Assembly: GCA_963714275.1 (NCBI GenBank)
Contig: CAVQNT010000002.1
Span: 942,576 to 1,006,575 of the forward strand
Origin: Candidatus Bathyarchaeota archaeon
GTDB taxonomy: Archaea; Thermoproteota; Bathyarchaeia; Bathyarchaeales; DTEX01
Length of the DNA stretch: 64,000 bases
Reading direction: 5' to 3'
Under the pieces are notes generated by a model, which saw only the letters and a program-made list of their open reading frames with translations, had not been told where the DNA came from and did not search any database. A program made the position numbers and the translations under genes. Positions 1,641 through 44,019 of this stretch are shown piece by piece (the first letter of the stretch is position 1; each line of letters opens with the position of its first letter).

Positions 1641-1671
1641 AAATAACTAACTAACGCGCGTTCTGTTTATT

Positions 1672-2553
1672 TCATGGGGGAGTCACGGTTACACTGAATG
1701 TCCAGATACCAATAGAATTTCTAAACCAATAAGCATCAACGTTGACAACACCAAGTTCAAAAACAAAATATCCATCTTTTGGAATTGTAAACCTCGGCGG
1801 ATCATCCAAGCTGATTTGTTCACATGCGATATCACCTAGTTCGCTACCATTATTCAAAAATACGTAATTGTATCTCAGATACCATCCTTCTGTTACATCA
1901 GAAGGATAATCAAGAAGTCTCAAAACAACAACATCTCCCTTTCTCAATTGGATACTTTGATTGAGGCTGTCAATTATGTGCATAGCGCTCCCTCGTATGT
2001 ACCACTCATTTTGAAATTTGGCAAGCGCGTTTGCTTCAATTGGGGGATTGTATTCAATTTCTATTTTGAAGGTCTGTTTCAGTTTACCAAGTTTCTGAAA
2101 GTGGTCAAGAATCCTCGAATCGTTTCTAGGGTCTACGCCCTTAAAAAAATCTGAGGAAGGATACCCTTTTTCCAGCTTTATTGTACTGTCAGTTGTATTG
2201 ACAAAAGTTTCTATAACTATTCCATGATATGAAACAGATGAAATTGGAGTCCAAAAGGATCCATTATAAATCTCTTGGTTGCCTATTTTCAAAACAAAAG
2301 GCTCCCCATGGATTACACTTTCCACTTTCAATGCTTGTATTTTCTTGACTCCTTCTTCAGTGAGTTTGATTTCGTGACTGCTTTTGTTATACCACACGAT
2401 TTCGTCATCGGATATTACTAGTTCATTGTTCTTCAGAAGGTAAATCCCAAATCCCTCACTCGAGAATCTGAGTTGATTAGTTAGGTAGAATCCTCCAGCG
2501 ACTACAAGAACTGCAACTATTAGAATGACCAATGAGATTTTGATTGTTTCCAT
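1672..2553 (-). CDS. Membrane-anchored or secreted hypothetical protein
   Basis: 293 aa ORF with N-terminal hydrophobic anchor (ISLVILIVAVLVVAGGFYL); GGAG-type RBS upstream on the minus strand. Confidence 0.75.
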   Translation of the reverse strand: METIKISLVILIVAVLVVAGGFYLTNQLRFSSEGFGIYLLKNNELVISDDEIVWYNKSSHEIKLTEEGVKKIQALKVESVIHGEPFVLKIGNQEIYNGSFWTPISSVSYHGIVIETFVNTTDSTIKLEKGYPSSDFFKGVDPRNDSRILDHFQKLGKLKQTFKIEIEYNPPIEANALAKFQNEWYIRGSAMHIIDSLNQSIQLRKGDVVVLRLLDYPSDVTEGWYLRYNYVFLNNGSELGDIACEQISLDDPPRFTIPKDGYFVFELGVVNVDAYWFRNSIGIWTFSVTVTPP

Positions 2554-2837
2554 AATAGAGCTGCTCCTAAACCTTCTCTTATCTGTTTGGATTTAATTAT
2601 TAAATTCAAGATAAAGGTGAAGTAGTAGAGTTGATTTTCAAGTTATAATTGCGATAGAATATGTCCTGCTGGCGCCATCAAACACCAGTCTAAGAAAAAA
2701 AACTCGAAATAATCAGAAATCTGCGAAAGAAATAGCAGAATGCGCGTTTGATTGACTGTTCGACCATTTGAGTGATTGATTGAGATTGATAGATAGAGAT
2801 TGATAGAGAAAGAGAGAGAGTATATATAAGTGAGAAA

Positions 2838-2861
2838 GGTTGGGTTGGGATTAAAATTATC
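2838..2861 (+). repeat. Dispersed G-tract/palindrome site (degenerate)
   Basis: GGTTGGGTTGGGATTAAAATTATC preceded by GA-rich simple sequence. Confidence 0.65.
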
Positions 2862-2924
2862 TTCGAATATAGTTTTATACAGTTTGTAGATTCCAATAGA
2901 TAAAGGAGAAATCAGCTATCAGAA

Positions 2925-3596
2925 GTGGTTCAGATGAACATTGACGTTTTTCGGGATAAACTTAGCTCTCAATTAGGAGAAAACCTCAAATGTTTAGTTC
3001 ATATGGGTAGTCGTGTTAGAGGAGAGGCAAGGGTTGACAGCGACTACGACTTCGCATTGATCGTTCACAACATAAACAGAAAAGTCTTGGATGAAATTAG
3101 AAATGTCTTCTCAGATTACCAAAATGTTTCAGTCTATATTCTCGAAGAACAGGAATTAAGGCGTCTCCCAAAAGCCTTGTGCGCCACAAATTTGCAGTTT
3201 ATCTACTCTAGGGTGGTCTATGGTGAATGCTATTTCCCAAAGCCGAGTACGGAGGACATCGACACCTACATTGGCATCATGAGGAGCGACGAGATTTTCG
3301 CTATTCGACATTATCTTACTCTCTCTCACGATTTGAGTAGATTAGTTGAAATAATTGGAATGCGACTAAAGATGGTGTACTTCTGTCTAACATATCTCAT
3401 CTACAAGGAGACAGGCGTTCTCTCAAGAACAAGACTCGAGGCGATGGACTACCTTAAGAAGAAAAGCTCCCAGAGACTCGGGGTTGCTCTTCTTGAGATT
3501 TTGGAGAATTGGCAATCTATAGAAACTTCGGCAGCTGAGAGAGTACGCGAGTATCTTCACATGTTGGAGGAGTTCTGGCGTACCCTTGAAGCATAG
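2925..3596 (+). CDS. Nucleotidyltransferase (Pol-beta/MNT superfamily) with C-terminal helical domain
   Basis: GSRVRGEARVDSDYD matches the GS-x(10)-DxD NTase motif. Confidence 0.8.
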   Translation: MVQMNIDVFRDKLSSQLGENLKCLVHMGSRVRGEARVDSDYDFALIVHNINRKVLDEIRNVFSDYQNVSVYILEEQELRRLPKALCATNLQFIYSRVVYGECYFPKPSTEDIDTYIGIMRSDEIFAIRHYLTLSHDLSRLVEIIGMRLKMVYFCLTYLIYKETGVLSRTRLEAMDYLKKKSSQRLGVALLEILENWQSIETSAAERVREYLHMLEEFWRTLEA

Positions 3597-3706
3597 AATC
3601 TGGAGGAAAAAACATAGGGCTAGCTAGATGTGTTTGTTTATTTGTTTTTGTTTGTTTAGCCTTGTATTGGTAAGTATGAGTATTGGAGTATAGGGGCGTA
3701 AGTAAG

Positions 3707-3731
3707 TTTGGGTTTGGGATTAAAATTTAAT
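3707..3731 (+). repeat. Dispersed G-tract/palindrome site (consensus copy)
   Basis: TTTGGGTTTGGGATTAAAATTTAAT followed by CTTTTT. Confidence 0.85.
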
Positions 3732-3848
3732 CTTTTTCTCTCTCTCTCTCTTATTTTATTTCTTATCCACGTTACAATGTATCCCATGTATCGTGTGTAT
3801 CGTATATCACACAAAAAAACTAGAAAAAAATACGAGGGAAGCCTAGGG

Positions 3849-4115
3849 TTACTTCACCAATCCTTCGCCACGCATCTTAACCCAAAATTTATCTGCTTTG
3901 TGTCTAATATTCACTGGTCTGCAAACAATACCCTTTTCCTTCAAAAACTGAAGGGCTTTTCTCCCAAGACCCTTTCTTTGAGGAGAAGAATGCATACCAA
4001 GTATCTTCAATCCGTCTTCATCCTCCCGAAGTGCAATTCGGACTTTCCCTTCAGTGAACTTGAAGTCAATGGTACAAGAGACTACGGGTTCAACGCGCGC
4101 TTTCATGGTAACCAC
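3849..4115 (-). CDS. Small GNAT-like acetyltransferase
   Basis: QRKGLG resembles GNAT motif A; ADKFWVKM resembles motif B. Confidence 0.45.
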   Translation of the reverse strand: MVTMKARVEPVVSCTIDFKFTEGKVRIALREDEDGLKILGMHSSPQRKGLGRKALQFLKEKGIVCRPVNIRHKADKFWVKMRGEGLVK

Positions 4116-4133
4116 ATTATCAATATTGTTAGG

Positions 4134-4475
4134 TTAGGCTATTATCCTTTCCACTTCAAAACATAATAGAATGTCACCAAGAAAACTGACAGAAGCTATT
4201 GATGCTGAAAGAATTGATATTATAACACCAAATAATTCGAGATGTTGCGGGTCATACTCTTCTATAGCCACAATAATTATTCCTAAAAGAATAAAGATCT
4301 CGGCAATCACGCCAAGAGAAATTCCAACCTTGTATCCTCTGTTACGATCTACCATTTTTTCGCACACCTTACTATCGAATAGAACCAGCGATATAAAAAA
4401 TTTACGTGAGGGGAAGTACAACTTGAATATGTCTCTCAAAACTTTTAGAATTTGCGGTGTTTCCAATGCCTTCAA
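4134..4475 (-). CDS. Small membrane protein
   Basis: Two hydrophobic helices; true start may be internal (MVDRN..). Confidence 0.45.
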   Translation of the reverse strand: MKALETPQILKVLRDIFKLYFPSRKFFISLVLFDSKVCEKMVDRNRGYKVGISLGVIAEIFILLGIIIVAIEEYDPQHLELFGVIISILSASIASVSFLGDILLCFEVERIIA

Positions 4476-4584
4476 TATCTACTATCTATCTGATGACGAG
4501 ATTTTTCGTTTACACAATGGTCCTTGATCTATTGAACAAGCACAACCAATAACTATGGAAGCATATTCTTCTCTCTTGCAGAAT

Positions 4585-4800
4585 TCATTGTTCAGGCTTC
4601 CGAATGAACCTTCCCGACTTTTTGTCTCTGTATCTTATCTGAAATTTACCGTGAACCGTAACCCGTTCAATCCGCCACGTCTGAGCTTCTTGCTCAGCAA
4701 ACTTCAAACGAGCCTGACGTTCAGTGTATACGCATAAGAACTTTTTCGGGAACAGGAATGCCGATTTTTTCAGCCTTACTTTCAAAGCCAAATTTTCCAT
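4585..4800 (-). CDS. Small basic hypothetical protein
   Basis: 71 aa ATG ORF ending RDKKSGRFIRKP. Confidence 0.45.
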   Translation of the reverse strand: MENLALKVRLKKSAFLFPKKFLCVYTERQARLKFAEQEAQTWRIERVTVHGKFQIRYRDKKSGRFIRKPEQ

Positions 4801-4923
4801 AATAGCGTCACTTGCTTTCTTTTATTAGTCTTTTACTGGAAGTCCGCGGATTTCATTGAATATTTAGAAGATATCCAAAACGGAGAAAAACAGGTCTGTT
4901 AAGTAAATCGTGCGCGCTTCTCT

Positions 4924-6009
4924 TTAAGGAAACTTTTTTCTCCTCTTTCTTAATATGAACAGAGCAGTCTTTGAGACGTATCCGTAAAGAATTGCTATTA
5001 TTAGAATAGCGGAGAACGCGACAAAGGTTGTTGAAGAACTCTGAAGCCATGGGTATCCACTTGCGATACCTATAAAATGGCTAATCTGACCGTGCAGGAC
5101 GAGGCTCAGCAAGATTAAAATGGCTCCTTCAATGGGATACTGAAGGATTTCAAGCTTCGGCTTTTCTTCGAGCAGAATTTTCTCGATAACGCTTATAACC
5201 GAGAGTAATCCCGCTCCGATCAAGAGCATAAAGGTTAAGGTCTCCGCAAAGGTCGCTCTGGCTTGAAGCACTGCAGGCACTTGGATAGTAGAGGTGAAGG
5301 ATATAGCGAACAGAAATAGTGTTAGGCACACCGTGAGTCGTTGTTCAAGTTTGTCCGGTTTGATCAAGGGCAAACTGCCCAGCAGAAAGAATGAAATGAA
5401 GAGCACTGACAAAATTAGTTGGCTTGAGAACCATCTTTGAAGAAACATTTTTGTGTTAAGTTGAACAGTTTGAAAACCTTCTTTCCAATATGGCGCTATG
5501 ACATCAAACCTTTCTTCAGGCGTTCCAGTCCCTTTGTATTCATCCAAGCCGGGTATCAAGCATATTATGCCAACTTTTGTGTTGTTGTAATTGATTAGGT
5601 CAAGTGGAAGATTAACAATGAACGTGAAGTTCAGCATATATCCGTCCATTGGGTAGAATTCAGTGTTTCCCTTCGGGTGGAAAGTCATTGTCTTGATCCC
5701 CCTATAGGTGTGACCGATAGGGTCGACGACCTGCATTTCGAGTTGGTTATACTCTTCTCCATATTCTTGCGTTTGCAGCACAGACACCCTTAGATTGGGT
5801 TCAGTCAAGTTATATGGCATGTTCATGAACTCAATTTGGACTTCCGCCGTTATTTCCTGCATCTCCATCCGTCTCAGCAAAACCGTGAACGAGAAAAAGT
5901 GTCCTTCTTTCTGCTGAACAGGCTGGGAAACACAGTTTGAAGTGCCTACGACGAATGTTTCTACTAATATAAGTATTAAGGAAAAAATAACCGCATGTTT
6001 GGAATTCAT
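4924..6009 (-). CDS. Pentameric ligand-gated ion channel (Pro-loop)/DUF4436-like membrane protein
   Basis: Signal peptide, beta-rich ectodomain with FYPMD, pre-M1 Arg (LQR), and M1-M4-like helices (EQRLTVCLTLFLFAISF, P..ATFAE) plus one extra TM. Confidence 0.65.
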   Translation of the reverse strand: MNSKHAVIFSLILILVETFVVGTSNCVSQPVQQKEGHFFSFTVLLRRMEMQEITAEVQIEFMNMPYNLTEPNLRVSVLQTQEYGEEYNQLEMQVVDPIGHTYRGIKTMTFHPKGNTEFYPMDGYMLNFTFIVNLPLDLINYNNTKVGIICLIPGLDEYKGTGTPEERFDVIAPYWKEGFQTVQLNTKMFLQRWFSSQLILSVLFISFFLLGSLPLIKPDKLEQRLTVCLTLFLFAISFTSTIQVPAVLQARATFAETLTFMLLIGAGLLSVISVIEKILLEEKPKLEILQYPIEGAILILLSLVLHGQISHFIGIASGYPWLQSSSTTFVAFSAILIIAILYGYVSKTALFILRKRRKKFP

Positions 6010-6069
6010 GTTAGATAGTTCAACGATTAAACTTAAGTATTATTATAACGCGCGTTCTGTGTATGTTTT

Positions 6070-7033
6070 TCATGTTTTTGTGTGTATTAAAAGTTTATGT
6101 AACTCTTCCCCGAAACCTTTTATTTGAACGAGGGTTCCTAGGCAGGTTGCTTCGTTTGAAAGATCTTTGAAGCACTTTGAGCATTGAGATATCTTTTTGA
6201 AGTTAAGGTTTCTCAACTTGTTCATTAACTTGGATTGGTTGTAGATTGAATATAGCCGTTTTTCTCTCACGTTTCCTATGCAGAACTCTTTGAAGGCAAG
6301 TAAATGGCAAGGATAGACTGACCCTTCAGGATAGACGGTGAGAAACTTTCCTACGCCGCAGTTGAATTTATCCTTTGTCTCGCGCTTTAAATATAGCCCA
6401 AATGTTTCATACCAGAACTCCCCTACAGTCCTTTCTACCTCTTCTGGGTTACATACAATTTTTTGATCTCTAGCCTTTCCTGCAAGCCTCAAAGGGGAGA
6501 CATGGATCTTAAGGATCCCATTTCTGATCATGAAGTGCATAAAGTCTTTCAGATGTGGGAGGTTCAAGGAAGTAACAGTGATGAATGCCACAGGGTCTCC
6601 TCCAGCCTTCAGTATGTATCTAAAGGCATTTATTGCCCCCTCAAATGTTCCTTTGCCTCTTAATTTTTCGTTGACTTCTTCAAAGCCATCGATACTTATC
6701 CTTATCTCGTGAAAACTGTGAACCAGGTCACTTGCATTCTCTTCTTTTATCAAAGTGCCGTTCGTCGTCAAACACAGACTTTATGTCGTTTCCCGCATTC
6801 TTAAGTGATTGGGCAAGTTCCAGAATGTCATTTCTGAGTAAAGGTTCGCCACCTGTGAAGATGATTCTCCTCGGGTTAAGCAGAGAGGCATCCCTGAGAA
6901 CTGGAAACATCTCCTCTGTCGAGAGCTCTTTCTCGAAGGGCTCTCCAGCTGAGAAATAACAATAAACGCAGCGGAGATTGCAAGCCTTCGTGACATGAAG
7001 ATAAACCGTGTCTAATGACCTGATAACTTCCAC
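6070..7033 (-). CDS. Radical SAM/SPASM protein, frameshifted near 6780
   Basis: CNLRCVYC and FTGGEPLL in 6728..7033; SIDG and SPASM CGVG..GSVYPC..GNV..CSKC in 6070..6771. Confidence 0.9.
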
Positions 7034-8686
7034 GCCTCCTCGCTGAGGAATGCGGCGGGATCGTAAGGTGGATTCCCTCTACGTTTCAACTCGTTTGTCG
7101 CTATTTCCCTCTGAGACTCAAAACTTAGGTTGCCTTCGTCAAAAAAACTGCAAGACCAAGAAATTGTCACCTTAATATCTCTTCTCTGTGATATTTTATG
7201 CAAAATATTACTTGAGATCTGTGTAGGAATATTACAGAGTTCAAGAATTGCCTCCTTGTTCTCTTTCAAATCATAGTGGTAAGTTCCAGAGTCTTTACCT
7301 GTATCAATACGATCGGGTTTTTTGATTCTTGGTACTTTAAGTATTAGAGCAGTATAGTCGCCAAAAAGAGTTCTCATTTTATCATACCAATCGCTAAAGA
7401 ATCTATCAATGTTAGCCCATAAAGGATATGGAAATTCAGAAAACAACCAATCTATAATTGCCTCTGCGCTTCGTAAGTCTCCTATTTTTCCAAGAGCAAA
7501 TGCTACTGCTTGTCGAGTCCTCCAATATTCCTCCCAAAGGTCCTCCTCTCCTTCTCTTGGTTTCCTTAGAACCTCAATGAGCGGTTCTACTGCTCTCGCA
7601 TCGCCTATGTCTACAAGAATGCTTATTGCTTCCAACCTGAGATCTTTATACTTTAAGGCTTGAATAAGTGGTTCAACAGCCGGCTTCCCTGTAATCTTAG
7701 TAAGGGCTCTATTCATTGTATCTATGAAAATGCCTTTTTCGTAAGGCATAACTTGAATAATAGGTTCTATGGCTCTTGCATCTCCTATCTCCCCAAGGAC
7801 CTCTGTTGCTTCCCTTCGAAAATTGCTGTATCTTAGGGCTTGGATGAGGGGTTCAACAGCTGGCTTTCCCAGTTCAGCCAGTAGTTCCCATTGCTTTTTC
7901 ATAATTAGGTAATACGCTCTCTCCGTAGCGTCTTGTGGCTTCCAACCTATTTTATCGAGAGCTGCCTCTACATACCCTAAGGTTTCGATGGGTCGTATCG
8001 CCGGGTCACCTTCCTTAAATGTTTGAATAAGAGCTATCGCTGGTTTTCCAATTTTAACTCCTATCTTAACTAGAGCATCTATTACTACAAATCTTATTAA
8101 TTTAAGGTGCTCAAGAGCCAAAATAAAATCTTCTTTCTTTAGTGAACGTGTGTCTCCCAAGGTTTTACTAAGGGATTCTACCGCTCTCGGATCACCCATC
8201 TCTCCAAGACCCTCAGCAGCCTTTTTCCGAACCTCCCAATTTTCGTCTTCTAGAGCTTGTATGAGGTAATCTACAGCCCTTTCGTCCCCTATCCTGCTGA
8301 GGGCATTCACAGTCAACAATCTGACAATAGCAGATTTATTCCCCAAGGCTTGAATTAAAGCCTCAAAAGTCTGGTTTTCCGATTTTAGCAAGAGCTGAGG
8401 CTGCCTCTTTTGCAGCGATGTCGTCCCGCCTTAAAACATCAGCAAGTGGTTCTATGGCTTGCGTGTTGCCTATCTCACCAAGAGCAGTTGCAGCAATTAT
8501 TCGTAAACGAGGATTTTCACCTTTTAGGATTTTAATGAGGTGCTCAACTGAGGGCTCTCCTATCCTGACAAGTGCTCTAGTTGCCGCACCTACTATTTCC
8601 AGATCCTTATATTCTAAAGCTTTTACTAGACCATTAACATCTTTTGCCTTTTCCATCTTTTCAACATTAGGCTTGAATAACCACAT
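7012..8686 (-). CDS. HEAT/PBS-lyase repeat protein, frameshifted near 8370
   Basis: Repeated ALGEIGDxRAVEPLIQAL units in both ORFs (8363..8686 and 7012..8391). Confidence 0.85.
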
Positions 8687-9020
8687 TAGCCTGTATCCTT
8701 CCTAAAACCATAAGGACAAATTGCACTTATTAGTATATTTCGCGCGAGCTATATTGCGTGTTTCTCGGGTGTGTGGATACATTGGTGCGTCTGAAGGGGT
8801 CAAGCCCTATTATGGCGAGACAACCTTTACCGGAGACTATCTTTATGAGAATCGGTTCTATATTACCCAAGGTTAGATGATTAGTACTAAATTCTAGGCT
8901 TCCAAGCTTCTCGTTCATCTCTTTGGAAATTCGCAAAAAGTAAAGCCTCTTTTTTCTTAAAACTTTAGAAAAGTCTTATAAATGCTCGGAAAATAGTTAG
9001 AGTAAATATATTTTTAGCTA

Positions 9021-10139: not shown

Positions 10140-10418
10140 CGTCAGCAAGCAATATCCCTTAGGAATGTTGCTTCGACCAATATTGATTGAAAAAAGGTAG
10201 CTAGCCTAGAGTGCTACACCATTTAACAAGCACTATTATAGCGCGCGTCATCTCAATTTTAGATTCGATTCTTTAAGAGTTAAAATAAAAAAAAGGAAAA
10301 AAAAGACAATGTTATTCGGTGTATAGTTTGGAGGAAATAGATGAGGCTTTTAACTGGCTTGTGCTGATTCTTGGCACGCTGGCTGCGACTTTGATTGAAT
10401 CTATACATACCTATTTAG

Positions 10419-11027
10419 ATGAAAGGAGGTGTAAAAATGGGTCTATTTAAAAGGTTTACAAAGCCATCTAAAAAAGAGGCAGAAGAACATGATTTCAACC
10501 ATTTAATTGATATTCTTTTGCATGATGAGAGCGTTGAGAAAAGGTACGATGCTGCCGTAAGACTTGGCAGCCTACATGATGCCCGAGCTGTTCCAGCTCT
10601 AATTCAAGCATTCGGAGATGGCGGATCAATACATATCAAAGGTGTCGCTGTTGTATATGTTAGTGTAGCAGCGGTAGAAGCGTTAGGCGAAATCGGAGGT
10701 CCAGAAGCAACTCAAGTACTGAGTAAGGTGCTTCGAGTAAGCTCTAGTGGTATGTCATTCGCAGCAAAGAAAGCACTCAAAAAGCTCGGTGCCACAGACA
10801 TACTCAGAAAATATGCTCCATTTTCTAATCAGTCTTGGGAGGCCATAACATTAGATGAAAGCGGAAATACTTATCGTGGATATGGTGTTCAAGGGCGGCA
10901 AGAGAGTCTTCAAAAGCTCACTGGACCTGGGGATTATGTCCTCCTAGAGTGCTCCATCGCCGATATCTACGAGGAGAAAGGTGAAAGGAAGGCTTTACCC
11001 GATGGTGCTCCCCGTCCGTATAAATAG
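10419..11027 (+). CDS. HEAT-repeat protein; probable start 10437, may extend to ~11266 via frameshift
   Basis: AAVRLGSLHDARAVPALIQA and AVEALGEIGG; GGAGGTG RBS before ATG 10437. Confidence 0.75.
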   Translation: MKGGVKMGLFKRFTKPSKKEAEEHDFNHLIDILLHDESVEKRYDAAVRLGSLHDARAVPALIQAFGDGGSIHIKGVAVVYVSVAAVEALGEIGGPEATQVLSKVLRVSSSGMSFAAKKALKKLGATDILRKYAPFSNQSWEAITLDESGNTYRGYGVQGRQESLQKLTGPGDYVLLECSIADIYEEKGERKALPDGAPRPYK

Positions 11028-11334
11028 GTTGGGAAGGTACTTATTGAGGCTGAAACGCCTTATCCGAAATCATCTCTAACCAATGGGTTAGTTAGTTTAG
11101 AAGCACGCAGACTACATCTCGACCATGCCTTTAATGAGGAGATTTCAGTGATAGACTTGGCTGGCGACCCCGTAGAGTTGCTTTCAGTTCAGAAGAAAGC
11201 CTTTGTGGACTTTTCAAGAGTAGATACCTCTGGTTTAGAACAACTAAAGAACTTGATGATTTTCTGAGTCGCGATCTAGCTCAGCTAAACTTTCAGACTC
11301 TTTCTTAACCAGCACTGTCTCATGTTCAATCTAG

Positions 11335-12476: not shown

Positions 12477-12705
12477 TTCTTAAACACCAAGATTGATCAA
12501 TATCAATCTTATTACTTAAGACTATTTTGTGATTATCGCGCGCAAAGAAGAGCCCTCATAATTTCGATCAACGTTAAAAACATTTAAAGAAGTATGAATA
12601 CTAGGCAATAGGAGAAATAGGTGGATTGTTTTTGGAAAAAAGAAAATGTCTGCTTCAAGGAAACCATCTTAGGAATAGCTCACTCGCTTTAACGTAGAAG
12701 GTTGA

Positions 12706-15019: not shown

Positions 15020-15126
15020 CATCCTACAAAATGGCAAGGTTTTAGTAGTTCGACTTGCACCTGCATAAAAACGTTTAGCGCGCGTGCTATTAGTCGACTC
15101 ATCTTTTATTCAAGTAACTTTATGCT

Positions 15127-15555: not shown

Positions 15556-15571
15556 GGAGTGCGACCCAGTC

Positions 15572-15844: not shown

Positions 15845-16053
15845 TCCTCTGTGTCCATAATAAATCTAGTGGCATTATTTAAGGTTAGTGGTAATAAACT
15901 TTATAACTAGCTAGCAAAGACGCAAGCCATAAAGGGCCAACTGAAAATATTCCAAGTCTAGCTGGCTAATGGCCCTATGTAAGGGCGCGCTAAAATGTAG
16001 TTATTTTTTTATTCTAAGGAGATGATAATGATAAAGATATAGGAGTTGATTAA

Positions 16054-16470
16054 ATGTCTGAGAAAAAACCTGACATTAGAGTTGGCTTTAAAAAAGAAAT
16101 TATAGTTGTGGATAAGCTTCCGAAGCCGACCTTGCCATATTCTAATTGTGTAAAAGCTGGAAATCTCTTATTCGTTGCAGGACAGGTTGGAATAGACCCA
16201 GCAAACAATCAGTTAAAAGGCAGTTCAATTAGAGAGCAGGTAGATCAGGCTCTAAAAAACATGTCCAACATCCTTAAAGTTGCTGGAAGTTCCATGGAAC
16301 ATGTTGTCAAGACAACAGTATTCATATCAGACTTTGGAGATTTTGATGAAATGAACAAGATTTACTCGAAATATTTCCAAACCAATCAACCTGCACGCAG
16401 CACGGTTCAGGTCATCCTTTATAACGGATTCAAAGTCGAAATCGAAGCTATAGCAATAATCCCTTCATAA
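16054..16470 (+). CDS. ridA: RidA/YjgF enamine-imine deaminase
   Basis: PYS..LFVAGQ..VVKTTVFI..MNKIY..PARSTV..VEIEAIA. Confidence 0.92.
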   Translation: MSEKKPDIRVGFKKEIIVVDKLPKPTLPYSNCVKAGNLLFVAGQVGIDPANNQLKGSSIREQVDQALKNMSNILKVAGSSMEHVVKTTVFISDFGDFDEMNKIYSKYFQTNQPARSTVQVILYNGFKVEIEAIAIIPS

Positions 16471-16914
16471 AACATGTGTTGTTCAAATCTATAAAAAAAG
16501 ATGCCCAAATGAGTAAACCCTAGGTCATTTATTAGAGATAATAGGGGTGAAATTTACTTTATTAGTCTTTTAACCATCAAATTGATTGATAAAATGAAGA
16601 AAACGAACGTAACAGCCACCAGCTATAAGAATCTAAGAAGCATTGAAAGATCAGGCATGGTTGTGCCCAACAAATGATTAATTCATATGATTTCTCTTCC
16701 TTCAATTGTAGGACAGCGGTGAATGCTATTTTATGATAAGTCTGTTTCAGTCTGTTTTTTTTAAACAGGGTTTGAATTTGGCTTATCTCACGTATACAGA
16801 AGGTTGCAGAAGGCTACAAAAGGTGTTAGAAGTACAGGGAAGGCTGGTTGAAACATGCCCTTAACTGAAACTGTAGCTAGCTCAGCTGGTTTATTTTTGA
16901 GTCTTTAGTATTGA

Positions 16915-17671: not shown

Positions 17672-17754
17672 AACTATAGTGCAATTCGAAAATTATGGTT
17701 TTTTGTTCAGAAGAAAAGTGAAGGTTATCCATGATTGTCTATGTTGGCTAGCTA

Positions 17755-17869
17755 GATTCTTATATTTAGGAGCCATCCTATGTCTTGGCTCCACCATATT
17801 AGGTAGATCTCTTTGAATCCATTTCGCAGGATAACTTCAACGGCTTTCGTTAGGTTCATAGTGTAATAG
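17755..17869. repeat. 115-bp gene-fragment repeat (other copy 33033-33147)
   Basis: Shared CCATCCTATGTCTTGGCTCCACCATATT and GCTTTCGTTAGGTTCATAG; bracketed by CTAGCTAG and AGCTAGCT. Confidence 0.85.
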
Positions 17870-18168
17870 TGAGCTAGCTATCCTAAACCAACTTTAACGC
17901 GTTCAACGTGGTATAAAATTCTGATTTTTTAAGAAGAATGTTTCTGAATTTTCAAAATAGAAAAAATTGTTATCAGAAAAATATGTTCTGTAATTTAGTT
18001 ACTTATTATTCTAAATATTAAATATAAATATGTTGTATGTTTAGGTGAATGACTTGCGAAAGCATTCATTACCATATTTATTAATTTTAGCTAGATAGCT
18101 GTTCTAAGCCCTTTTTCATGCGGACTGTGTGCTAAAGCAATGATCCTATATTATTCAACTTTACCTTT

Positions 18169-22853: not shown

Positions 22854-22980
22854 GCGCGCGCTAGCTAGAATGCAAGTCACGGAATCTACAGGAAAATGTG
22901 CATATAGCTCAAGTCCAGTTTTTATCTATTCAAAGACTTCTTTCTTAACCATGAATTTGTTCACTAAACAAAGGAAAACT

Positions 22981-24532: not shown

Positions 24533-24543
24533 GTTCTGTTTGC

Positions 24544-29822: not shown

Positions 29823-29874
29823 TAGTCAGCTAGCGTTCTCGCACTCTCTGAGATTTCTTTCGTGTTCATTTGAG

Positions 29875-30575: not shown

Positions 30576-30793
30576 TGCCTTTAAAGTGGGACATTATTCA
30601 GATTGCGCGTGATGTTTCAGTTATCTGGCATTTTAGAATTTGCCTCTGAGCCTTCTTTATTAGGAAGGCTTTATTCATTAACAGGAAATTGGTTTCGGCG
30701 GATTTTTAATGTTCATGCGTTTTTTCTGTTTAAAGCCATTTTATGGTTTTTGTTAAGCCTTCTTTCAAGTTCACCTTGGGCATCCATAGCTGA

Positions 30794-33147: not shown

Positions 33148-33372
33148 ATCATTATGCTGGCTTAGCTTCATGCTGTATTCAAATGATATTTTTAAAAAAA
33201 AAGTTTTATTTTTCCAAAAATAAAAAAAGTCAGCTAGCTACTATTTTTATATAAAAGACTTATGTGGTCATTCATTTTACTCATAGAAAAGTATATTTTA
33301 TGTTGATTTTTTGTGAATTGAAATTGGTAACTTTTTAATACTTTTTGTCACTTTTTGTTACTGGTGTTAATT

Positions 33373-35044: not shown

Positions 35045-35168
35045 TGCGTAACCGTCAAATATTTTCCAGCGAATATAGCTGAGTTAGCTATACACACGCA
35101 AAGGTTTCAGGTTAGAAATTAGCCATGCTAAAAGTGGTTGAATAGGACAAAGGAGAGCGCGCGTAATT

Positions 35169-37295
35169 CTAGTTTATCACTTCTACCACTTCTTTTATTC
35201 TTATGCATAATGTTCCGTCCATCCTATAAAGGTCGGCAGCTGCCTTGAACCTTGAGTTCTTCTTTATCAATGCTTTAGGTCCGTTGTATTCTTCAGGTGT
35301 AAGCCGAGCCCTCCATTTGTCGTTCACTATGACCACTGCTATGTTTGGATATATCTTTTCAACGGCTACCTCGTACATTTTTTCGCCGACCGCCTTTACA
35401 GCTGATGCGACGGCATAGCGATCTTGTCCTATCTCCGTAACAAGGCCTTCTCTAACCATCTTTCCAACTGTTGCTTTCAGAACTTGAGGCGAACTCCTTC
35501 ATACTCCATGTCTGAAGCTATTTGACCTATATCTGCGCCGGAACCTCCTCTTTCCAAAAGTTTCATATACAGTATTCGTGAGGTACATTCAACCTTCCTG
35601 TTAAACTCTCTTAATAATTTCAGCTTCAGGTTTCACTGCTTCAGGTTCAGCCTTAACCTGCCTAGCTTCCTCCTCCAGCGTTCTTATCTCCATCTGTGTC
35701 AGCGGGTTTGAAGTCGGCTTAGAATGTTTTCTGACAAGAGGCTGAAGCTTCAGGTTCATGTTCTCAGCTATAGTCTTCATCTTCTCAGTTCTTCTTCTGC
35801 TGGCGTAGAGGTAGATCATGTCGAGGCTTTCGTTCGCCGCTAAGATTGTGACTTTGCCAGGGGCTTTTCTCCCTGTTCTGCCGCGTCGCTGGATATATCT
35901 TATTTCGCTTGGTATAGGCTCATAAAATATGACGTGGTCCACTGCTGGAATGTCCAAGCCTTCCTCAGCGATTGAGGTTGCCACTAAAACATTCAGTTCG
36001 CCTTCTTCAAGCATTCTTATCCTTTCAGCCTGCTCTTCCTGAGTCAAACCTTTATCCATCAGTCTTTGAGGCTTGACCGACAAACCTATCAGCCTTCACG
36101 CCTGGAACCGCGTTTAGCTCTTCAACCAGATGGCTTGCTGTATCCCTATACTGTGTGAAGACAAGCATCCTTGATGACGGCTTTTTCTCAATTTGTTCCT
36201 TCACTATTTGTTTCAGAAGTTCAGCCTTCGGATGTTCCGTGGAGCTGTTTTTAACAGAGGTCTCTAATTTCCCATATTCCGAGTCACTTACAAGTATGGC
36301 ATAGCTGCGCTTCTCCCGTTTCTCCAGTTCAACCTTTTTTAGGAAAGCTCTCAGCGTATGGAGTCCTTGAGTCTCCAATAATTCAAGCATATGAAACAAT
36401 GTTAAGGCCAGTGACTGGTTTATTATGGCTGTGAAAATGTTGCCTCTTTCCTCCTCTATGCTTTCTTCAAGCATGAACCTGAGTTCATTTCCAGCCTCAA
36501 TCAGGCTTCTTCTGGTAACGTATTCTAGTCTGCGTTTGATTATGCCCCTGCCAATCAGCCAGTTCACCCTTCTATCCAGCATAGTCCTGATTTGAAACCT
36601 ATATCCAAGTATTCTTTTGGCAGGTTTACTCGTTTCCATTCAACCTCTATCGGCTGGATGTAAGGCTTGACATCTGAGTCTTCTTCGCTTCTGTACTCAA
36701 CCCCTTCAATGTACAGGTTTCTGCAGACCGCTAACACTCTGTCTAGGTCTGAGCCTGGAGAAGCCGTCATACCCAATATAAGCGGATAACGGGCTTGAGA
36801 AACGTAGAGCTGAGCAATGTCAGTGTACGCATATTCTTTCACGGCTTTGTGACACTCGTCAAAGACAACTAAGCCATAGTTTTCGAGCGATAACCTATGT
36901 TCATGGAGGTCGTTTCTTACCACTTGAGGCGTAGAGAAAACTATTCTAGCCTCGCCTTCCCAAACTAGATGTCTATAATCTGGAGACGTCTCCCCCGTTA
37001 AGAGCACCGTATCCTTTTCCCGAAGCTTGAGCAGCCTTAAGAAACTGTTCCTATGCTGCAAAACCAAAGGCCGCGTAGGCGCCATAACCAAGACCTTAAA
37101 GTCCTTGTAGTTGTAAAGCACATTTGCTGCTACAATTACTGAGATAACAGTTTTGCCTAACGCGGTTGGCAGGATAACCAGCGTGTTTCTTTCTGAGGCT
37201 ACATCCGCTATATGTTTCTGGTAGAGCCTGAACTCTACAGTCTCAGGCCAGATCAAGGGATGCTCGAAGTATTTTGGGCCGTATGCTTCCAGCAT
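35169..37295 (-). CDS. Hef/FANCM-like SF2 DEAH helicase with no recognisable ERCC4 nuclease; split by frameshifts
   Basis: RLYQ, PTALGKT, PTRPLV, DECH, GMTASPG, VFTQYRDT, FVGQA, ATSIAEEGLDIP and QRRGRTGR across four ORFs. Confidence 0.9.
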
Positions 37296-37627: not shown

Positions 37628-37887
37628 AACGTAACACCAAAATCATTATCAACTTGTAGAGAGTTAAAACTTTCCGTAATACTACCACTTCATTTTCCTT
37701 ATTTAACAGCAACCAGATAAGCTCGCGCGCGCCAAACTTACTTTCCTTCTTTTTTCAGACTAGCTAGTACCAGCTTTCAAAAAGTACAGTATATTTCCAC
37801 GGTGGTTTTTTTGGACTAAGTGGATGACTGATGAAGAGCATGAGTTGTTTAGGTCTTTTTGGAAGAACATCAAGAAACTTAAACAGT

Positions 37888-38289
37888 GAGCTTGTCATGC
37901 AACGATGTTAATATTGTGTCTTGATTTCTCGTTCACATCTTTCCATTTCACGATATTTTCCGCAGTAGCCTACCTCGCCAAGATTACGGCATGTGAACAC
38001 ACTCGGCTGATAATATTTGCATTTATATGAGTATTTACAGGCGAAGAAATTCTTTAGAATCGTGGCAATCTGCACATAGGGTCACTCGAGTATTATAATG
38101 CCTAGTATCTTTCTGCAGAGAGAACTAATGATTTGTGAAATACACATTCAGAGTTCAGTTTAGAAGGACTGACTCATAAGAAAAGAAAAAGTGAAAAAAC
38201 AAGAATGAAAGAACGAAAAAAAACGGATAAAAGGTTTGGGTTAAGGAATTGAAATTTATTAGATGACTGCTAGAAGATATCTGGAAGAC
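37888..38289 (+). repeat. ~400-bp direct repeat, copy 2 (includes Cys-rich ORF 37908..38075, minus strand)
   Basis: Matches 26278-26676. Confidence 0.95.
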
Positions 38290-41051: not shown

Positions 41052-42062
41052 ATGAAAAAAATTTTAAATGAGCCTTCGGGATTTGTCGACGATATGCTTC
41101 AGGGCATCTTAAAAGCCTATCCAAACCACCTGCGTCTTGTTGAAGGTAGTAGACGAGCTTCAGCTCGGGTTGAAGCTCCCGTTAAAGAAAAAGTAGGTAT
41201 TGTTACAGGCGGAGGTTCAGGTCACCTTCCAGTATTTCTGGGATATGTCGGAAAAGGACTCGTTGACTCGGTTGCAGTTGGAGATGTCTTCAACTCTCCC
41301 ACTATGGATGATGTGCTGGCGGCTACTAAGGCAGTAAACGCTGGTGAAGGAGTTCTGTACCTTTATGGGAATTATATGGGGGATGTTCTTAACTTCGACA
41401 TGACTGCTGAAATGGCCGAAATTGAGGGCATAAAAGTTGAAACGGTCTTAGTTAGCGACGACGTGGCTTCAGCTCCTAAAAACCAATGGAAAAGAAGAAG
41501 AGGAATCGCTGGCTTATTTTTTGCCTATAAAATTGCAGGCGCAAAGGCTGAAGAGCGTGGTAAACTAGATGAAGTTAAAGCAGTAGCCGAGAAAACTGTA
41601 TTTAACACCCGTTCGATGGGTGTAGCCTTATCTCCATGCACAATCCCCGCTGTCGGTAAACCAACATTTAGTATTAGCGAAGATGAGATGGAGTTAGGCA
41701 TGGGCATTCACGGTGAACCTGGTATTGAACGAACCAAAATGATGACTGCTAATGAAATTGCGAATATATTAACTAATAAGATTCTGGAAGATTTACCTTT
41801 CAAGAAGGAAGATGAAATAGCCATTTTAGTTAATGGCTTAGGCGCTACCCCTCTTGAAGAATTATTCATCGTCTATAGCAAAGTAAACGAAATTCTGAAT
41901 GAAAAAGCGATTATCGTGCATAAAGCCTACATAGGAGAGTATGCTACCTCTATGGAAATGTCAGGCTGCTCATTAAGTCTTCTTCGACTTGATGAAGAAC
42001 TGAAAATACTTCTTGACACGCAAGCTTTCTCACCATTCCTTATGCAATGGGGATGCTATTGA
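41052..42062 (+). CDS. dhaK: Dihydroxyacetone kinase subunit K family
   Basis: GGGSGHLP, GNYMGD, DDVAS, RRGIAG, GMGIHGEPG, NGLGAT. Confidence 0.93.
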   Translation: MKKILNEPSGFVDDMLQGILKAYPNHLRLVEGSRRASARVEAPVKEKVGIVTGGGSGHLPVFLGYVGKGLVDSVAVGDVFNSPTMDDVLAATKAVNAGEGVLYLYGNYMGDVLNFDMTAEMAEIEGIKVETVLVSDDVASAPKNQWKRRRGIAGLFFAYKIAGAKAEERGKLDEVKAVAEKTVFNTRSMGVALSPCTIPAVGKPTFSISEDEMELGMGIHGEPGIERTKMMTANEIANILTNKILEDLPFKKEDEIAILVNGLGATPLEELFIVYSKVNEILNEKAIIVHKAYIGEYATSMEMSGCSLSLLRLDEELKILLDTQAFSPFLMQWGCY

Positions 42063-42707
42063 AAGATAAGATAACGTCTGCTTACTTAATCAAAATATTC
42101 GAAAAAATAGCTAATGATGTTACAGAATCTAAAGATTTCATCCGTGAACTTGATGCAGCCGTAGGAGATGGCGATCTCGGGGTAACCACATCCGACTGGA
42201 TTAAAGAGTTTAAGAAACGGTCTTGTTGAACTTTCAGACAGTGATATAGGAACCATCCTGATTAAATGCGGTATAAACTATAACAAGTCTGGGGCATCTA
42301 CCTTTGGAACGCTATTAGCCATAGCATTAATGAAAGCAGGAAACGAGGTAAAGGGTAAAAATGATGTTGATCTACTCGACCTTGTAAAAATGGCTAATGC
42401 AGCTGTTCAAGAAATCAAAGATCGTGGAAAGGCGCAAATAGGCGACAAGACGATACTCGACGTTTTAGTGCCCGCTACTGAAGCGTTGCAAAGTGCATAT
42501 AACCACAAAAAGAATATGGCAGAGGCTTTGGATGAAGCTTTAAATGCTGGTGAAGAAGGCTTAAAGTCAACCATACAAATGAGGTCGAAGGTTGGTCGTT
42601 CCAGCTGGCTGGGAGAAAAAACAATAGGAAAACAAGATCCAGGCGCTACTGTAATTTATCTAATGCTTAAATCATTCACCGAATTTGTGAAATCACTAGC
42701 TGACTAG
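42047..42707 (+). CDS. dhaL: Dihydroxyacetone kinase subunit L family, frameshifted ~42195
   Basis: LDAAVGDGDLG; RGKAQIGDKTILD; GRSSWLGE..DPGA. Confidence 0.88.
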
Positions 42708-42900
42708 AAAAGCAATAGTGGTTTATGATTCTAAATTCGGTAATACCGAGAAGATCGCAAAAGCACTTAGTTGGGGAATGAGAAAGAATGGTTTCTCGGT
42801 CGACTGCGTTAAAATAGATACTGTTGACCCAACAAAACTCGCAGACTACGATCTGCTGGCTATAGGGGCTCCCACACAAGCTTTAGGTATATCTGGACCG
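42708..42900 (+). pseudogene. Flavodoxin N-terminal remnant
   Basis: KAIVVYDSKFGNTEKIAKAL..YDLLAIGAPT; the original start appears lost at CTAG and similarity stops at the CGCGCGCGC run. Confidence 0.85.
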
Positions 42901-42972
42901 CGCGCGCTGTCTCTTCTTTTTTGGGGTTTCTTGATTATTGCTTCTTTCAGGCTATTGAATTCTTTTTACCTC

Positions 42973-43967
42973 TTATTTGAAGACTTTGACAACCTTGTCG
43001 TAGTATGTTTCCACTTCTTCGTCTGTTCCTTTTCTAGGATAGGTGAGAAAGGTGGTCACGCCTATATCGATGCGCTTCTGTATCTGATCGATGATTTCGT
43101 CAGTAGTGCCAATTAGGTTCCAATCAACATACTCTTGCGTCAAAGGCATTAGGCCTCGAGTGAATTTCAGACCCGGAGTCCTCTCAACTATGTCGACCAG
43201 CTCCTCTTTGCGACGATAAATTATTAACTCAGAACTCCACTGTTTCTTTATCTCATCATAGTTTCTACCCACTACCTCACAATGCTTCTTCAAAACATTC
43301 AACTTATGCTTATACGATTCCACACTTCCAAAAAAGTTCCATTCGTCAGCCTCCCGAGCGACTACCCTGAGGGTCAGTGCTCTCCTCCGCCGCCAATCAT
43401 TATTGGTGGTCGGGGTTTCTGAACGGGTTTAGGCTCACAAATCGGATTGTCAATTTGGAAGTATTTTCCCTTCCATTTTGGACTCTTCTCAGTCCACATC
43501 ATCTTGCATATTTTCACGGCTTCCCTCAACTGTGCGATTCTAATCGCTGGCTTGGGGAATAGCATACCATAGCCTCTATACTCTTGTTCGGCCCATCCTG
43601 CTCCGATGCCCAATATGACTCTTCCATGTGAAATAAAGTCTATGTTAGCCACCATTCTCGCTAGGACGGCGGGATTGCGGTAGCCGACGGCGACGACCGT
43701 CTCTCCCAGTTGGGCTCTCTTCGTTACGGCTGCGATGGCTGCTTTGGTTGTCCCCCATTCAAGCATTGCTCCTCCTTCCCAGGATAGGTGGTCGCAGCCA
43801 TAAATGGCATCGTAGCCCAGTTCATCACATTTTATGGCCATGCTTGCGACTTTATCCCAGTTGACTTCCGATTTTGTCTGACCTGCCACATCTCTATACC
43901 AGTGACATCGATCGAGGATAATTCCAAATTTTATTTTAGCCAATTTAGTCACCACATCGAATGTCAA
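42973..43967 (-). CDS. LLM-class (luciferase-like) flavin/F420-dependent oxidoreductase, frameshifted ~43375
   Basis: GYDAIYGCDH, RNPAVLARM..DFISHGRVILGIGAGW..EY, PKPVQKPRPPIMIGGGG. Confidence 0.9.
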
Positions 43968-44019
43968 CTTTTAAAATAAAAGATTTTATGGTTGAATTGA
44001 TTCGCGCGTGCTTTGAATT

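Follow-up and report, generated by a model that had tools for sequence, protein, structure and literature searches.

Short runs of alternating C and G recur at gene boundaries in the window (the whole 64-kb stretch of DNA analysed), and they raise the question of whether such runs are scars of a CGCG-specific insertion or recombination process, as the original prediction held, or elements of another kind. The 15 runs that the prediction had listed are all present (15/15), out of a total of 28 CG runs of at least 5 nt. They are given below by their coordinates in the window, with no strand assigned; X1, X2 and X5 designate other strains whose contigs were compared.

1655..1660: CGCGCG, 6 nt, 12 nt beyond the stop of gene 1672-2553(-); an 81% paralogous segment (C4:126675-127083) begins 11 nt later, and X5 contigs depart nearby, at 1641/1642
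2742..2746: GCGCG, 5 nt, an unenriched length class; an X1 contig spans the site
4912..4917: GCGCGC, 6 nt, 7 nt beyond the stop of 4924-6009(-); in X1, X2 and X5, T>C at position 4911 extends the run to 9 nt
6049..6054: CGCGCG, 6 nt, 40 nt from the start of 4924-6009(-) and 16 nt from the stop of 6070-6771(-); longer through A>G at 6048 in 4/4 other-strain datasets compared
8741..8746: CGCGCG, 6 nt, 55 nt before the start at 8686(-); an X1 contig spans the run
10241..10247: GCGCGCG, 7 nt, 102 nt past the end of a gene at about 9021-10139(+)
12537..12543: CGCGCGC, 7 nt, between divergent starts at 61 and 163 nt; an X1 contig spans the run
15078..15084: GCGCGCG, 7 nt, between convergent gene ends at 59 and 43 nt; spanned by X1 and X2 contigs, while one X2 contig departs at 15071
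15985..15990: GCGCGC, 6 nt, 64 nt before the RidA gene, within the strain-variable segment 15947-16658
22854..22861: GCGCGCGC, 8 nt, with TAGCTAG directly after; in the interior of a 9.1-kb, 98% duplicate (19881-28998), away from its end
30605..30609: GCGCG, 5 nt, of the same length class as 2742
35157..35163: GCGCGCG, 7 nt, 6 nt beyond the stop of 35169-35459(-)
37724..37732: CGCGCGCGC, 9 nt, 97 nt before the start at 37627(-); the repeat C2:920295-920424 starts 32 nt later
42899..42907: CGCGCGCGC, 9 nt, where a truncated flavodoxin gene breaks off
44003..44008: CGCGCG, 6 nt, 36 nt before the start at 43967(-); a G3T3-like tract (44020-44034) comes next

Few runs had been seen in coding DNA, and this was borne out: among the 14 runs of at least 6 nt, 12 lie outside gene calls; of the other two, 8741 falls inside a 68-aa call, itself a weak one, and 4094 inside a gene. 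The placement described earlier is also correct, several runs lying shortly past the stop codons of genes that end at 1672 (12 nt), 4924 (7 nt), 6070 (16 nt) and 35169 (6 nt), and others about 35-100 bp before the starts at 6009 (40 nt), 8686 (55 nt), 12476 (61 nt), 37627 (97 nt) and 43967 (36 nt), with AACGCGCGTTCTGT common to the sites at 1655 and 6049. The hexamer GCGCGC is found 13 times in the window, where 100 dinucleotide-preserving shuffles led one to expect 3.75 ± 2.19, and none of these (0/100) attained 13. The first 44 kb, with 12864 intergenic nt, contain 12-13 runs where about 2.3 were expected. The glycan cluster at 44-64 kb had been said to lack CGCGCG, and indeed only four runs, all of 5 nt, occur 3′ of 44008; however, this absence is uninformative because the region has 3061 intergenic nt, in which 0.55 runs are expected at the genome rate.

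Genome-wide, 69 runs of at least 7 nt are intergenic and 17 are coding, a 14.7-fold difference in density calculated from our own crude gene calls, which underlie the intergenic/coding split. Intergenic DNA has a GC content of 38% and coding DNA of 45%, yet the runs are enriched intergenically; no other GC-only hexamer exceeds an enrichment of 1.84-fold. For runs of at least 5 nt the intergenic/coding ratio is 1.08, that is, no enrichment, so that the 5-nt sites at 2742 and 30605 carry no weight. The notion of a local array must be abandoned, as there are 102 intergenic runs in the genome and the motif turns up in other members of the class.

The runs conform to the consensus (T)A-GCGCGCGC-T(A). 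Their modal length is 8 nt and their range 6 to 14 nt in this genome, where intergenic occurrences of A(GC)nT number 2828, 48, 5, 17 and 5 for n = 1 to 5. Of 145 G-edged flanks, 98 have an A at position -1; no conservation was found beyond 2 nt on either side of the run (204 flanks). Runs of this form could be neutral by-products, (GC)n microsatellites or the outcome of mutation bias, generated by slippage and tolerated only outside genes. Their variable length (6-14 nt) is consistent with this, as is the fact that dinucleotide repeats of at least 8 nt are all mostly intergenic (AG 91/150, AC 78/115, AT 62/96, CG 50/56), like the simple repeats (AGCT)n (63/68) and (AAACCC)n (13/13). The alternation of C and G over 6-14 nt is also that of Z-DNA-prone tracts, so that the runs may be prone to this form as judged by sequence; they differ from such tracts and from microsatellites in their preferred length of 8, their fixed A/T flanks and their over-representation. 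Slippage sits poorly with a length distribution that peaks at 8 rather than decaying smoothly, with the strong A(GC)nT phase and flank preference, and with a frequency several-fold above the runs' own order-4 (maximum-order Markov) expectation. Close relatives differ hugely, from 0 to 119 copies, and the strain differences at runs, among those listed (4911, 6048), are substitutions and not slippage indels. Alternating CG tracts are known for genetic instability, and GC6/GC8 patterns and simple repeats are generally suppressed in prokaryotes, according to a survey (PMC4060949); an over-represented GC-alternating tract is unusual because of this reported suppression, which also argues against a neutral origin. 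We regard such an origin as highly improbable.

The distribution of the runs along the chromosome is strongly uneven. Per 10 kb of intergenic DNA there are 2.94 runs in the top repeat quartile versus 0.68 in the bottom one (20-kb bins; rho 0.44), and 2.66 at the lowest versus 0.43 at the highest coding score. The runs gather in low-GC, repeat-rich regions of short genes and are not peculiar to the window. With respect to genes, 46 runs lie within 80 nt of an end (31.6 expected) and 11 within 40 nt of a start (17.8 expected), and the four intergenic types contain 35, 32, 19 and 16 runs, in proportion to their length. No upstream peak was found relative to gene starts, nor the fixed distance and orientation of a promoter (BRE/TATA) or terminator, and the flank survey revealed no T-tract after the run. 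Their appearance is that of marks left at insertions or junctions, and not that of promoters or terminators.

A different kind of cis-acting intergenic element has nonetheless to be weighed: a dimeric-protein site, an insulator, a bidirectional terminator or a Z-DNA-prone supercoil sink, which mobile elements would use as a safe site, the shared intergenic position then explaining the breakpoints described below. A palindromic 10-12-mer with a sharply preferred length of 8 would suit such an element, and so would the bias towards stops over starts. The runs are moreover stable across strains, two of those in the window being longer elsewhere. The distribution, however, speaks against it. Runs are 6-fold rarer per intergenic nt at high coding score, and core regions are nearly run-free, the exact 10-mer AGCGCGCGCT being absent from G083:C1:1-165 kb in a relative; this scarcity counts against a terminator or insulator because a general one should serve core genes too. 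The lack of preference among the four intergenic types and of a T-tract points the same way.

REP/BIME palindromic units are targets of IS1397/ISKpn1-type insertion sequences, and the runs resemble them as short palindromic intergenic repeats that number in the tens to hundreds, largely confined to intergenic DNA (69 of 86 runs of at least 7 nt) and used as IS insertion sites. They differ in being archaeal and far shorter, with a unit of 8-12 nt that has no loop or conserved extension and cannot fold into a hairpin, unlike the stem-loop of about 20-40 nt typical of REP elements. They are also concentrated in mobile islands rather than dispersed after operons, and they are found at gene-truncation junctions.

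Further evidence comes from relatives within the class, probably Bathyarchaeia. In scattered genomes, AGCGCGCGCT reaches 30-119 copies; counts of the 10-mer against its reversed control are 119/1, 106/5, 83/2, 63/0, 40/3, 35/1 and 30/0 in seven of the richest, 18/0 in this genome (G000) and 0-3 copies in most of the 201 genomes searched. In the islands of one relative, G083, 55 runs lie outside ORFs and 9 inside (17.7-fold), and 37 of 80 inter-ORF gaps contain a run, which is about every second gene boundary; runs of 6 to 11 nt number 11, 8, 27, 7, 1 and 1. Runs and genes alternate in these islands, and the genes they carry are unrelated to one another (hydrolase, glycosyltransferase, nitroreductase, protease, transposases). 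Homology boundaries lie within 5 nt of a run in 11 of 34 cases, against a null of 1.3% that restriction to inter-ORF DNA would raise about four times; among non-IS segments alone the figure is 4 of 26, and 21 of the 34 boundaries are more than 40 nt from any run.

Two different DDE_Tnp_1 (IS5-family) elements have a run directly outside 12 of the 13 ends seen in G083, G077 and G080, one of these 12 runs being of 5 nt only. IS loci with CGCG at their ends, for which the original prediction proposed to look, exist in these relatives; in G000 the PF01609 transposase is absent and the two IS types leave no trace. As in the target-site duplications of IS4/IS5-family DDE elements, the same short sequence stands directly outside both inverted-repeat ends. 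Unlike such duplications, the same GC run recurs from one insertion site to the next and with both IS types, which implies either a strict target choice or that the run belongs to the end; the palindromic nature of the run makes duplication and inverted repeat indistinguishable. Most runs have no adjacent IS, again unlike such duplications. PF01609 tracks the motif weakly, being present in 10 of 16 motif-rich genomes versus 84 of 201 overall: G165 and G173 have 35 and 40 motif copies without it, and G016 has 14 matches with one motif copy.

Genes are also found truncated at a run or within a few codons of one. An Iso_dh gene is whole in G080, but what is left of it in G077 and G083 is a 52-aa ORF whose Pfam match covers profile positions 1-32 only; the DNA homology of this ORF to G080 ends at AGCGCGCGCT, and a complete second Iso_dh gene comes 41 nt further on. 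Similarly, a Peripla_BP_6 gene that lacks profile positions 1-131 begins directly after a run. Runs occupy spots where an intact orthologue or paralogue has run-free coding sequence, suggesting that they arrive with the rearrangements, contrary to what a resident cis-acting element would predict. Such an element finds some comfort in the run beside the Iso_dh remnant, identical in G077 and G083 although the remnant has decayed to 72% identity, and in two genera that keep a run at the same position upstream of the same conserved block despite unalignable spacers; this shared position also accords with the interpretation favoured below. Taken with the distribution of the runs, we consider a cis-acting role rather doubtful.

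In G000 itself, paralogue homology ends 0-2 nt from runs at C2:244458, C3:61727, C10:3766 and C6:506487. In the window, the flavodoxin gene at 42718-43116 matches just the first half of its Pfam profile, and its paralogue alignment stops 1 nt from run 42899. Recent duplications have a run within 12 nt outside their end in 3 of 362 cases (0.6 expected) and none inside. Repeat ends as a whole are not closer to runs in this genome (7 of 1256 within 10 nt; null 0.52%), nor does the count of truncated-paralogue edges within 6 nt, 3 for 102 runs versus 23 for 2000 controls, reach significance. The strain-level variation mapped in the window includes the following segment:

15947..16658, plus strand: strain-variable segment of 712 nt comprising a run, a promoter-like region and the RidA gene

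This segment is missing in the X1 and X2 strains, which have 11 other letters in its place, and the edge of the indel is 39 nt away from run 15985. From 8964 on, a point 218 nt away from run 8741, another neighbour stands upstream of the gene at about 9021-10139(+). Both breakpoints (8964; 15946/16659) miss the runs, and runs 2742, 8741, 12537, 15078 and 15985 are spanned unchanged by contigs of other strains. The runs had been proposed to bracket self-contained units; in the cases mapped, the units that vary are different ones. Homology breakpoints at runs, likewise anticipated, exist for some segments of G083 and not in the window's two cases.

We favour, with a probability a little below one half (about 0.45), the interpretation that the run is a very short palindromic element of a variable compartment rich in mobile DNA, in this archaeon and in scattered relatives of its class, where it marks places at which DNA is broken and joined. 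The idea of insertion or recombination scars, and with it that of a cassette junction, is upheld in part, the runs being non-random, tied to the mobile compartment and linked to breakpoints in relatives; it does not hold for the window's own breakpoints. We infer that the runs serve as targets or junctions and are not simply bystanders. The run would be a preferred insertion or recombination site, and each insertion might either duplicate it, as a target-site duplication, or bring it along at both ends of the incoming DNA. Repeated insertion of single-gene modules and insertion sequences could then produce islands in which runs punctuate the gene boundaries, those of the window being probably old, stable marks. 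Candidate cutters are the two IS5-family transposases of family f23, of which none was found in G000.

Could the islands be built by cassette exchange, with a GC palindrome of 8-10 bp as the sole junction and the DNA between runs moving in either orientation? We think this unlikely; the agent would be an undescribed nuclease or recombinase, or GC-clamped microhomology. The strong form of the original prediction, in which a trans-acting enzyme excises the DNA between runs and reinserts it at another run with the 8-10 bp palindrome as its only site, appears more doubtful still. The run-gene-run-gene layout of the G083 islands with their unrelated cargo fits it, as does the sporadic distribution among genomes, which a transferable enzyme could explain. 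In G083, the non-IS gene at L179 4311-5050 has runs within 2 nt on both sides, and its 95% identical counterpart in G077 has neither. Yet no recombinase or transposase domain was found in the 23 window ORFs scanned with Pfam (about 88 genes called), in line with the remark that no recombinase is visible here. Tyrosine integrase (Phage_integrase) genes and Cas1 homologues occur elsewhere in G000, and no test links them to the runs. The site-specific recombinases known to date require longer sites. The predicted empty sites or circular modules closed at CGCG were not seen; no clean empty site was found in the G077 regions examined, and L181 18010 is a possible solo site with the same 12-nt left flank. 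Finally, the window's variable units do not end at runs.

The comparison with integrons can be kept only in part. A row of single-gene modules of unrelated function, a palindromic site soon after the stop codon and arrays in the variable part of the genome all recall integron cassettes. The attC sites, however, are hairpin-forming imperfect palindromes tens of bases long (about 57-141 bp) with conserved outer boxes. Here, the site is 8-12 bp without conserved flanks, and no Rfam family exceeded threshold in the window. An adjacent IntI-type integrase (23 window ORFs scanned) and an attI are both lacking. Each module has promoter-like DNA of its own upstream, modules lie in both orientations, and the sites are scattered genome-wide. 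With neither attC nor integrase, this is not an integron.

Bathyarchaeia belong to those uncultured archaea that are most abundant in sediments. No description of such a GC-run element was found in the literature searched, whose scope excluded subscription journals and supplementary files. A 10-bp palindrome that attracts insertion sequences and marks cut or replaced genes would provide a simple sequence tag by which acquired modules could be found and dated, and a search route to the enzyme acting on it. The runs may also explain the poor short-read assembly of these islands. Cassette exchange, if true, would have the shortest known cassette junction and represent a form of gene capture unrelated to integrons.

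A second punctuation mark, overlooked in the original prediction, consists of AGCT/CTAG-type clusters. Those of at least 9 nt number 20 in the window, all before 44.2 kb, and are commoner than the CG runs; they are related to these, being tandem A(GC)nT units in which n = 1. The following seven lie at or near repeat ends (no strand assigned):

3619..3627: AGCT-type cluster GCTAGCTAG; two repeats end here (3618/3619)
16874..16887: AGCT-type cluster TAGCTAGCTCAGCT; a repeat ends at 16874
17747..17755: AGCT-type cluster; a repeat starts at 17755
17870..17880: AGCT-type cluster; a repeat ends at 17869
29826..29834: AGCT-type cluster; repeat end 29822 lies 4 nt before
33230..33240: AGCT-type cluster; repeat start 33243 lies 3 nt after
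44155..44171: AGCT-type cluster TTAGCTAGCTTAGCTAA; the 2.9-kb duplicate 44161-47059 starts here, at 44161

Recent duplications in the window terminate at these clusters rather than at CG runs.

All 15 alternating CG tracts between genes (hereafter CG runs) on which the original prediction was built are present in the window, 13 of them 6-9 nt long and two just 5 nt. Their reported distances were confirmed (6-16 nt to stop codons, 36-97 nt to starts), as was the sharing of AACGCGCGTTCTGT by two sites. The window contains 13 copies of GCGCGC where 3.75 ± 2.19 are expected, a count reached in none of 100 dinucleotide-preserving shuffles. It forms the terminal 64 kb of contig C2 in a genome of 2.64 Mb and 10 contigs, whose protein matches point to Bathyarchaeia as the probable taxon. 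Its first 44 kb hold 12-13 runs where about 2.3 are expected in 12864 intergenic bases, and the first 20 kb of the run-bearing stretch (7 runs) make up the densest 20-kb bin of the genome. The claim that runs are missing from the 44-64 kb gene cluster is true but uninformative, since that cluster contains just 3061 intergenic bases. Scanning the window for Rfam families and tRNAs gave no match.

The intergenic preference extends to the whole genome. With a crude dicodon gene caller of our own, which called 78% of the genome coding, runs of at least 7 nt numbered 17 in coding and 69 in intergenic DNA, a 14.7-fold difference in density; for runs of at least 6 nt the figures were 118 and 102. This excess outside genes exists despite a poorer G+C content (38% intergenic vs 45% coding) and concerns GCGCGC (8.5-fold denser outside genes) and CGCGCG (4.7-fold), the remaining GC-only hexamers being at most 1.84-fold denser. 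Together with their flanks, the runs conform to the palindromic consensus (T)A-GCGCGCGC-T(A). A stands at -1 in 98 of 145 G-edged flanks, and past ±2 nt the flanks carry no information. Lengths are not geometrically distributed: intergenic A(GC)nT tracts with n from 1 to 5 number 2828, 48, 5, 17 and 5. According to one survey (PMC4060949), prokaryotes generally suppress GC6/GC8 tracts, and our literature searches returned no account of such a motif in archaea. That the run is a neutral simple repeat appears quite improbable.

The four types of intergenic region hold 35, 32, 19 and 16 runs, in proportion to their lengths. Close to gene ends (within 80 nt) they are only mildly over-represented (46 vs 31.6), and genome-wide no distance peak is seen upstream of starts. 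Together these features argue against promoter function and against a terminator acting in one direction; a promoter (BRE) reading in particular was rejected for want of the distance peak. A multi-frame stop barrier was likewise set aside, as runs just mildly exceed background in this respect. Sorted by 20-kb bins, run density per intergenic base is 4.3 times higher in the top than in the bottom quartile of repeat content; it is 6 times higher where the coding score is lowest, and is raised in low-GC bins with short genes.

DNA from 4800-10400 of the window found almost no match in 30 relatives, which made it impossible to compare the window itself with orthologous DNA. The motif was surveyed across 201 genomes of the class with completeness of at least 90%, counting AGCGCGCGCT against its reversed control. 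Most genomes carry 0-3 copies, and scattered ones carry many.

Copies of AGCGCGCGCT and of the reversed control in motif-rich genomes
G077: 119 and 1
G083: 106 and 5
G154: 83 and 2
G110: 63 and 0
G173: 40 and 3
G165: 35 and 1
G074: 30 and 0
This genome (G000): 18 and 0

Twelve of 15 sites inspected in G154, G077 and G165 lie outside stop-to-stop frames of at least 90 aa. The 116 GCGCGCG matches of another relative, G004, were set aside as not comparable because they sit in GC-rich, coding-like contexts. In the short-read assemblies of G077 and G154, many copies of the 10-mer are found no more than about 1 kb from where a contig begins (G077:C32:37 and G154:C36:269 are examples), which points to assembly breaks close to repeats or variable segments bounded by runs.

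Copies in G083, a genome of 5 contigs, are grouped in islands. Five such stretches, 98 kb in total, contain 55 runs outside ORFs and 9 inside (17.7-fold), and a run is present in 37 of 80 inter-ORF gaps. Length peaks at 8 nt (27/55), and the runs are flanked by A in 40 and by T in 41 of the 55. As cargo, the islands carry unrelated genes (dienelactone hydrolase, glycosyltransferase, nitroreductase, subtilase, transposases), whose homologues are spread over many contigs of G077, a member of the same genus. The expectation that IS ends would coincide with CG runs held in relatives: for two distinct DDE_Tnp_1 (IS4/IS5-type) elements in G083, G077 and G080, a run lies directly outside 12 of 13 inspected ends. 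In the present genome PF01609 finds no match, tblastn shows no trace of either transposase, and the end sequences of the two IS types do not occur beside its runs. No clean empty site for either type was recovered from G077. PF01609 was found in 10 of 16 motif-rich genomes vs 84 of 201 overall. As a general cause it was rejected, being absent from this genome and from the motif-rich G165 and G173, and plentiful (14 matches each) in the motif-poor G016 and G157, which have 1 and 0 copies of the motif.

Junctions of other kinds also fall at runs. Among 34 homology boundaries in the G083 islands (segments of at least 78% identity), 11 have a run within 5 nt, against 1.3% for random positions, a null that would be about 4 times higher if limited to inter-ORF DNA; for non-IS segments the count is 4 of 26. 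One non-IS gene in G083 (4311-5050 of fetched locus L179) has runs within 2 nt on either side, and its 95% identical counterpart in G077 lacks both. An intact Iso_dh gene lies 3' of the aconitase small-subunit gene in G080. In G077 and G083 it is reduced to a 52-aa remnant, matching Pfam profile positions 1-32 only, whose DNA homology to G080 ends at AGCGCGCGCT; a complete second Iso_dh gene starts 41 nt beyond. In G110 the same gene is cut earlier, the junction being of GCTAGCT type, and a decayed run persists in G139. A Peripla_BP_6 gene of G083 devoid of profile positions 1-131 starts directly after a run, and in both G083 and G080 a run stands upstream of one conserved block, with differing spacers and left flanks. 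The run is a short palindrome that belongs to the mobile compartment and is often located exactly at sites of insertion, truncation or replacement. Its most likely nature, to which we give a probability of roughly 45%, is that of a preferred insertion or recombination site, at which successive insertions would multiply the run. A cis-acting boundary element merely targeted by mobile DNA would be a distinctly less probable account of the same junctions.

Within the present genome, 12% of which is repeated by self-comparison, the association with repeats is looser. Ends of all repeats show no run enrichment (of 1256 intergenic ends, 7 have a run within 10 nt; null 0.52%). At the 362 intergenic ends of recent duplications (at least 85% identity), a run occurs within 12 nt outside in 3 cases vs 0.6 expected, and inside in none. 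Homology between paralogues ends 0-2 nt from runs at C2:244458, C3:61727, C10:3766, C6:506487 and window position 42899, the last adjoining half a flavodoxin, and at these places sister copies continue into coding sequence; a controlled count of truncated-paralogue edges (3/102 runs vs 23/2000 controls) was not significant. In the window, only runs 1655 and 37724 are within 35 nt of a repeat end. Repeat ends within 4 nt were found at 7 of 18 intergenic AGCT-type clusters and at no CG run. Just outside the 362 recent-duplication ends, AGCT/CTAG-type clusters are about 10 times above chance, AGCTAG being present 29 times (expected 2.9) and a tandem pair of AGCT units 10 times (expected 0.8). Genome-wide, 63 of 68 AGCT-type arrays of at least 10 nt are intergenic. 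Under the preferred-site reading, these clusters would be short relatives of the run that mark recent events in this genome.

Repeated features of the window
AGCT/CTAG-type clusters between genes (palindromic, stop-rich, 9-17 nt): 3619, 11276, 12077, 15907, 16874, 17747, 17870, 22683, 29592, 29826, 32381, 33230, 33982, 35077, 40789, 40900, 44155
G3T3-like G-tract repeats: 26620-26634, 34492-34506, 38233-38246, 44020-44034; C-rich strand at about 1620-1640
Inverted duplicate, 9.1 kb, 98% identical, of C2:80457-89565: 19881-28998

Up to 44 kb, the window is a mosaic of many such repeats. (AAACCC)n arrays of at least 14 nt number 13 genome-wide, all intergenic, and are enriched close to repeat ends on either side. 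Intergenic segments 8884-8951 and 10326-10396, with 76-83% matches in G010 and G002, genomes of the same family, and at C1:90111 and C2:480640 of this genome, may represent small repeats or else RNA genes; neither has an Rfam match.

Parts of 6101-16100 occur in 20 metagenome sequencing runs from 18 studies, none of them listed as RNA; sediment and wetland samples are among the sources of this population. Contigs from four of these datasets, aligned to 1501-17500, covered 27-30 of 30 bins. Other-strain contigs bridge the CG runs at 2742, 8741, 12537, 15078 and 15985, and the run is longer at 4912 in three of the four datasets and at 6049 in all four. An assembly artefact was rejected, the runs being present in independent assemblies of four studies; the CG runs of the window are real and stable. 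At the two strain-level breakpoints mapped in the window, the prediction that units break at runs did not hold. Metagenomes scanned with the product of gene 9030-10139 gave a single contig, of 2.2 kb. A metagenome contig 98% identical to this gene switches context at 8964, 218 nt from run 8741, with a CTAG-type cluster at the junction. Similarly, 15947-16658 is missing in the strains of datasets X1 and X2, and run 15985 sits 39 nt inside the left edge. Single bases at 8370, 11282, 14532, 15570, 16883 and 4877 are missing from contigs of most or all four datasets. This assembly therefore carries insertions of one base, either errors of assembly or frameshifts of the strain, that split genes, among them the HEAT-repeat gene 7012-8686; the differences at the first five of these positions explain several of its split genes.

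The runs had been proposed to be scars of an integron-like capture system whose enzyme acts in trans. The array is not an integron, because no integrase was found among 23 window ORFs scanned, consistent with the recombinase absence already noted, and attC-like flanks are absent. The dedicated capture system that had been proposed seems unlikely. Elsewhere in the genome, C4:99112-105175 (1113-7176 of fetched locus L151) contains a 5.8-kb segment between 135-nt inverted repeats, 99% complementary, each including GCGCGCGCGC. It holds a Cas1 homologue (PF01867, 3e-41), multi-copy in this genome, with HTH and zinc-ribbon ORFs. As it combines Cas1 and inverted repeats with no polymerase by Pfam, it is a casposon-like element without PolB. 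DhaK (Dak1), at 41052-42062 of the window, has its closest matches in bacteria (64-66% amino-acid identity, Actinomycetes and Chloroflexia MAGs). It was likely acquired horizontally, because the best 80 matches listed, mostly bacterial and considered without synteny information, include just one from an archaeon (Bathyarchaeia). Several multi-copy proteins of this genome (413, 384, 521, 493, 338 and 86 aa) match no family in Pfam, NCBIfam or PHROGs.

Multi-copy genes of this genome, families of 384-521 aa with 4-6 copies
C6:535962-537203
C7:158617-159771
C2:745794-747359
C3:109708-111189

The 413- and 384-aa proteins were queried in the Atlas; their nearest clusters are Bathyarchaeota hypothetical proteins, and their neighbours are 100% archaeal, Candidatus Bathyarchaeota being the commonest.
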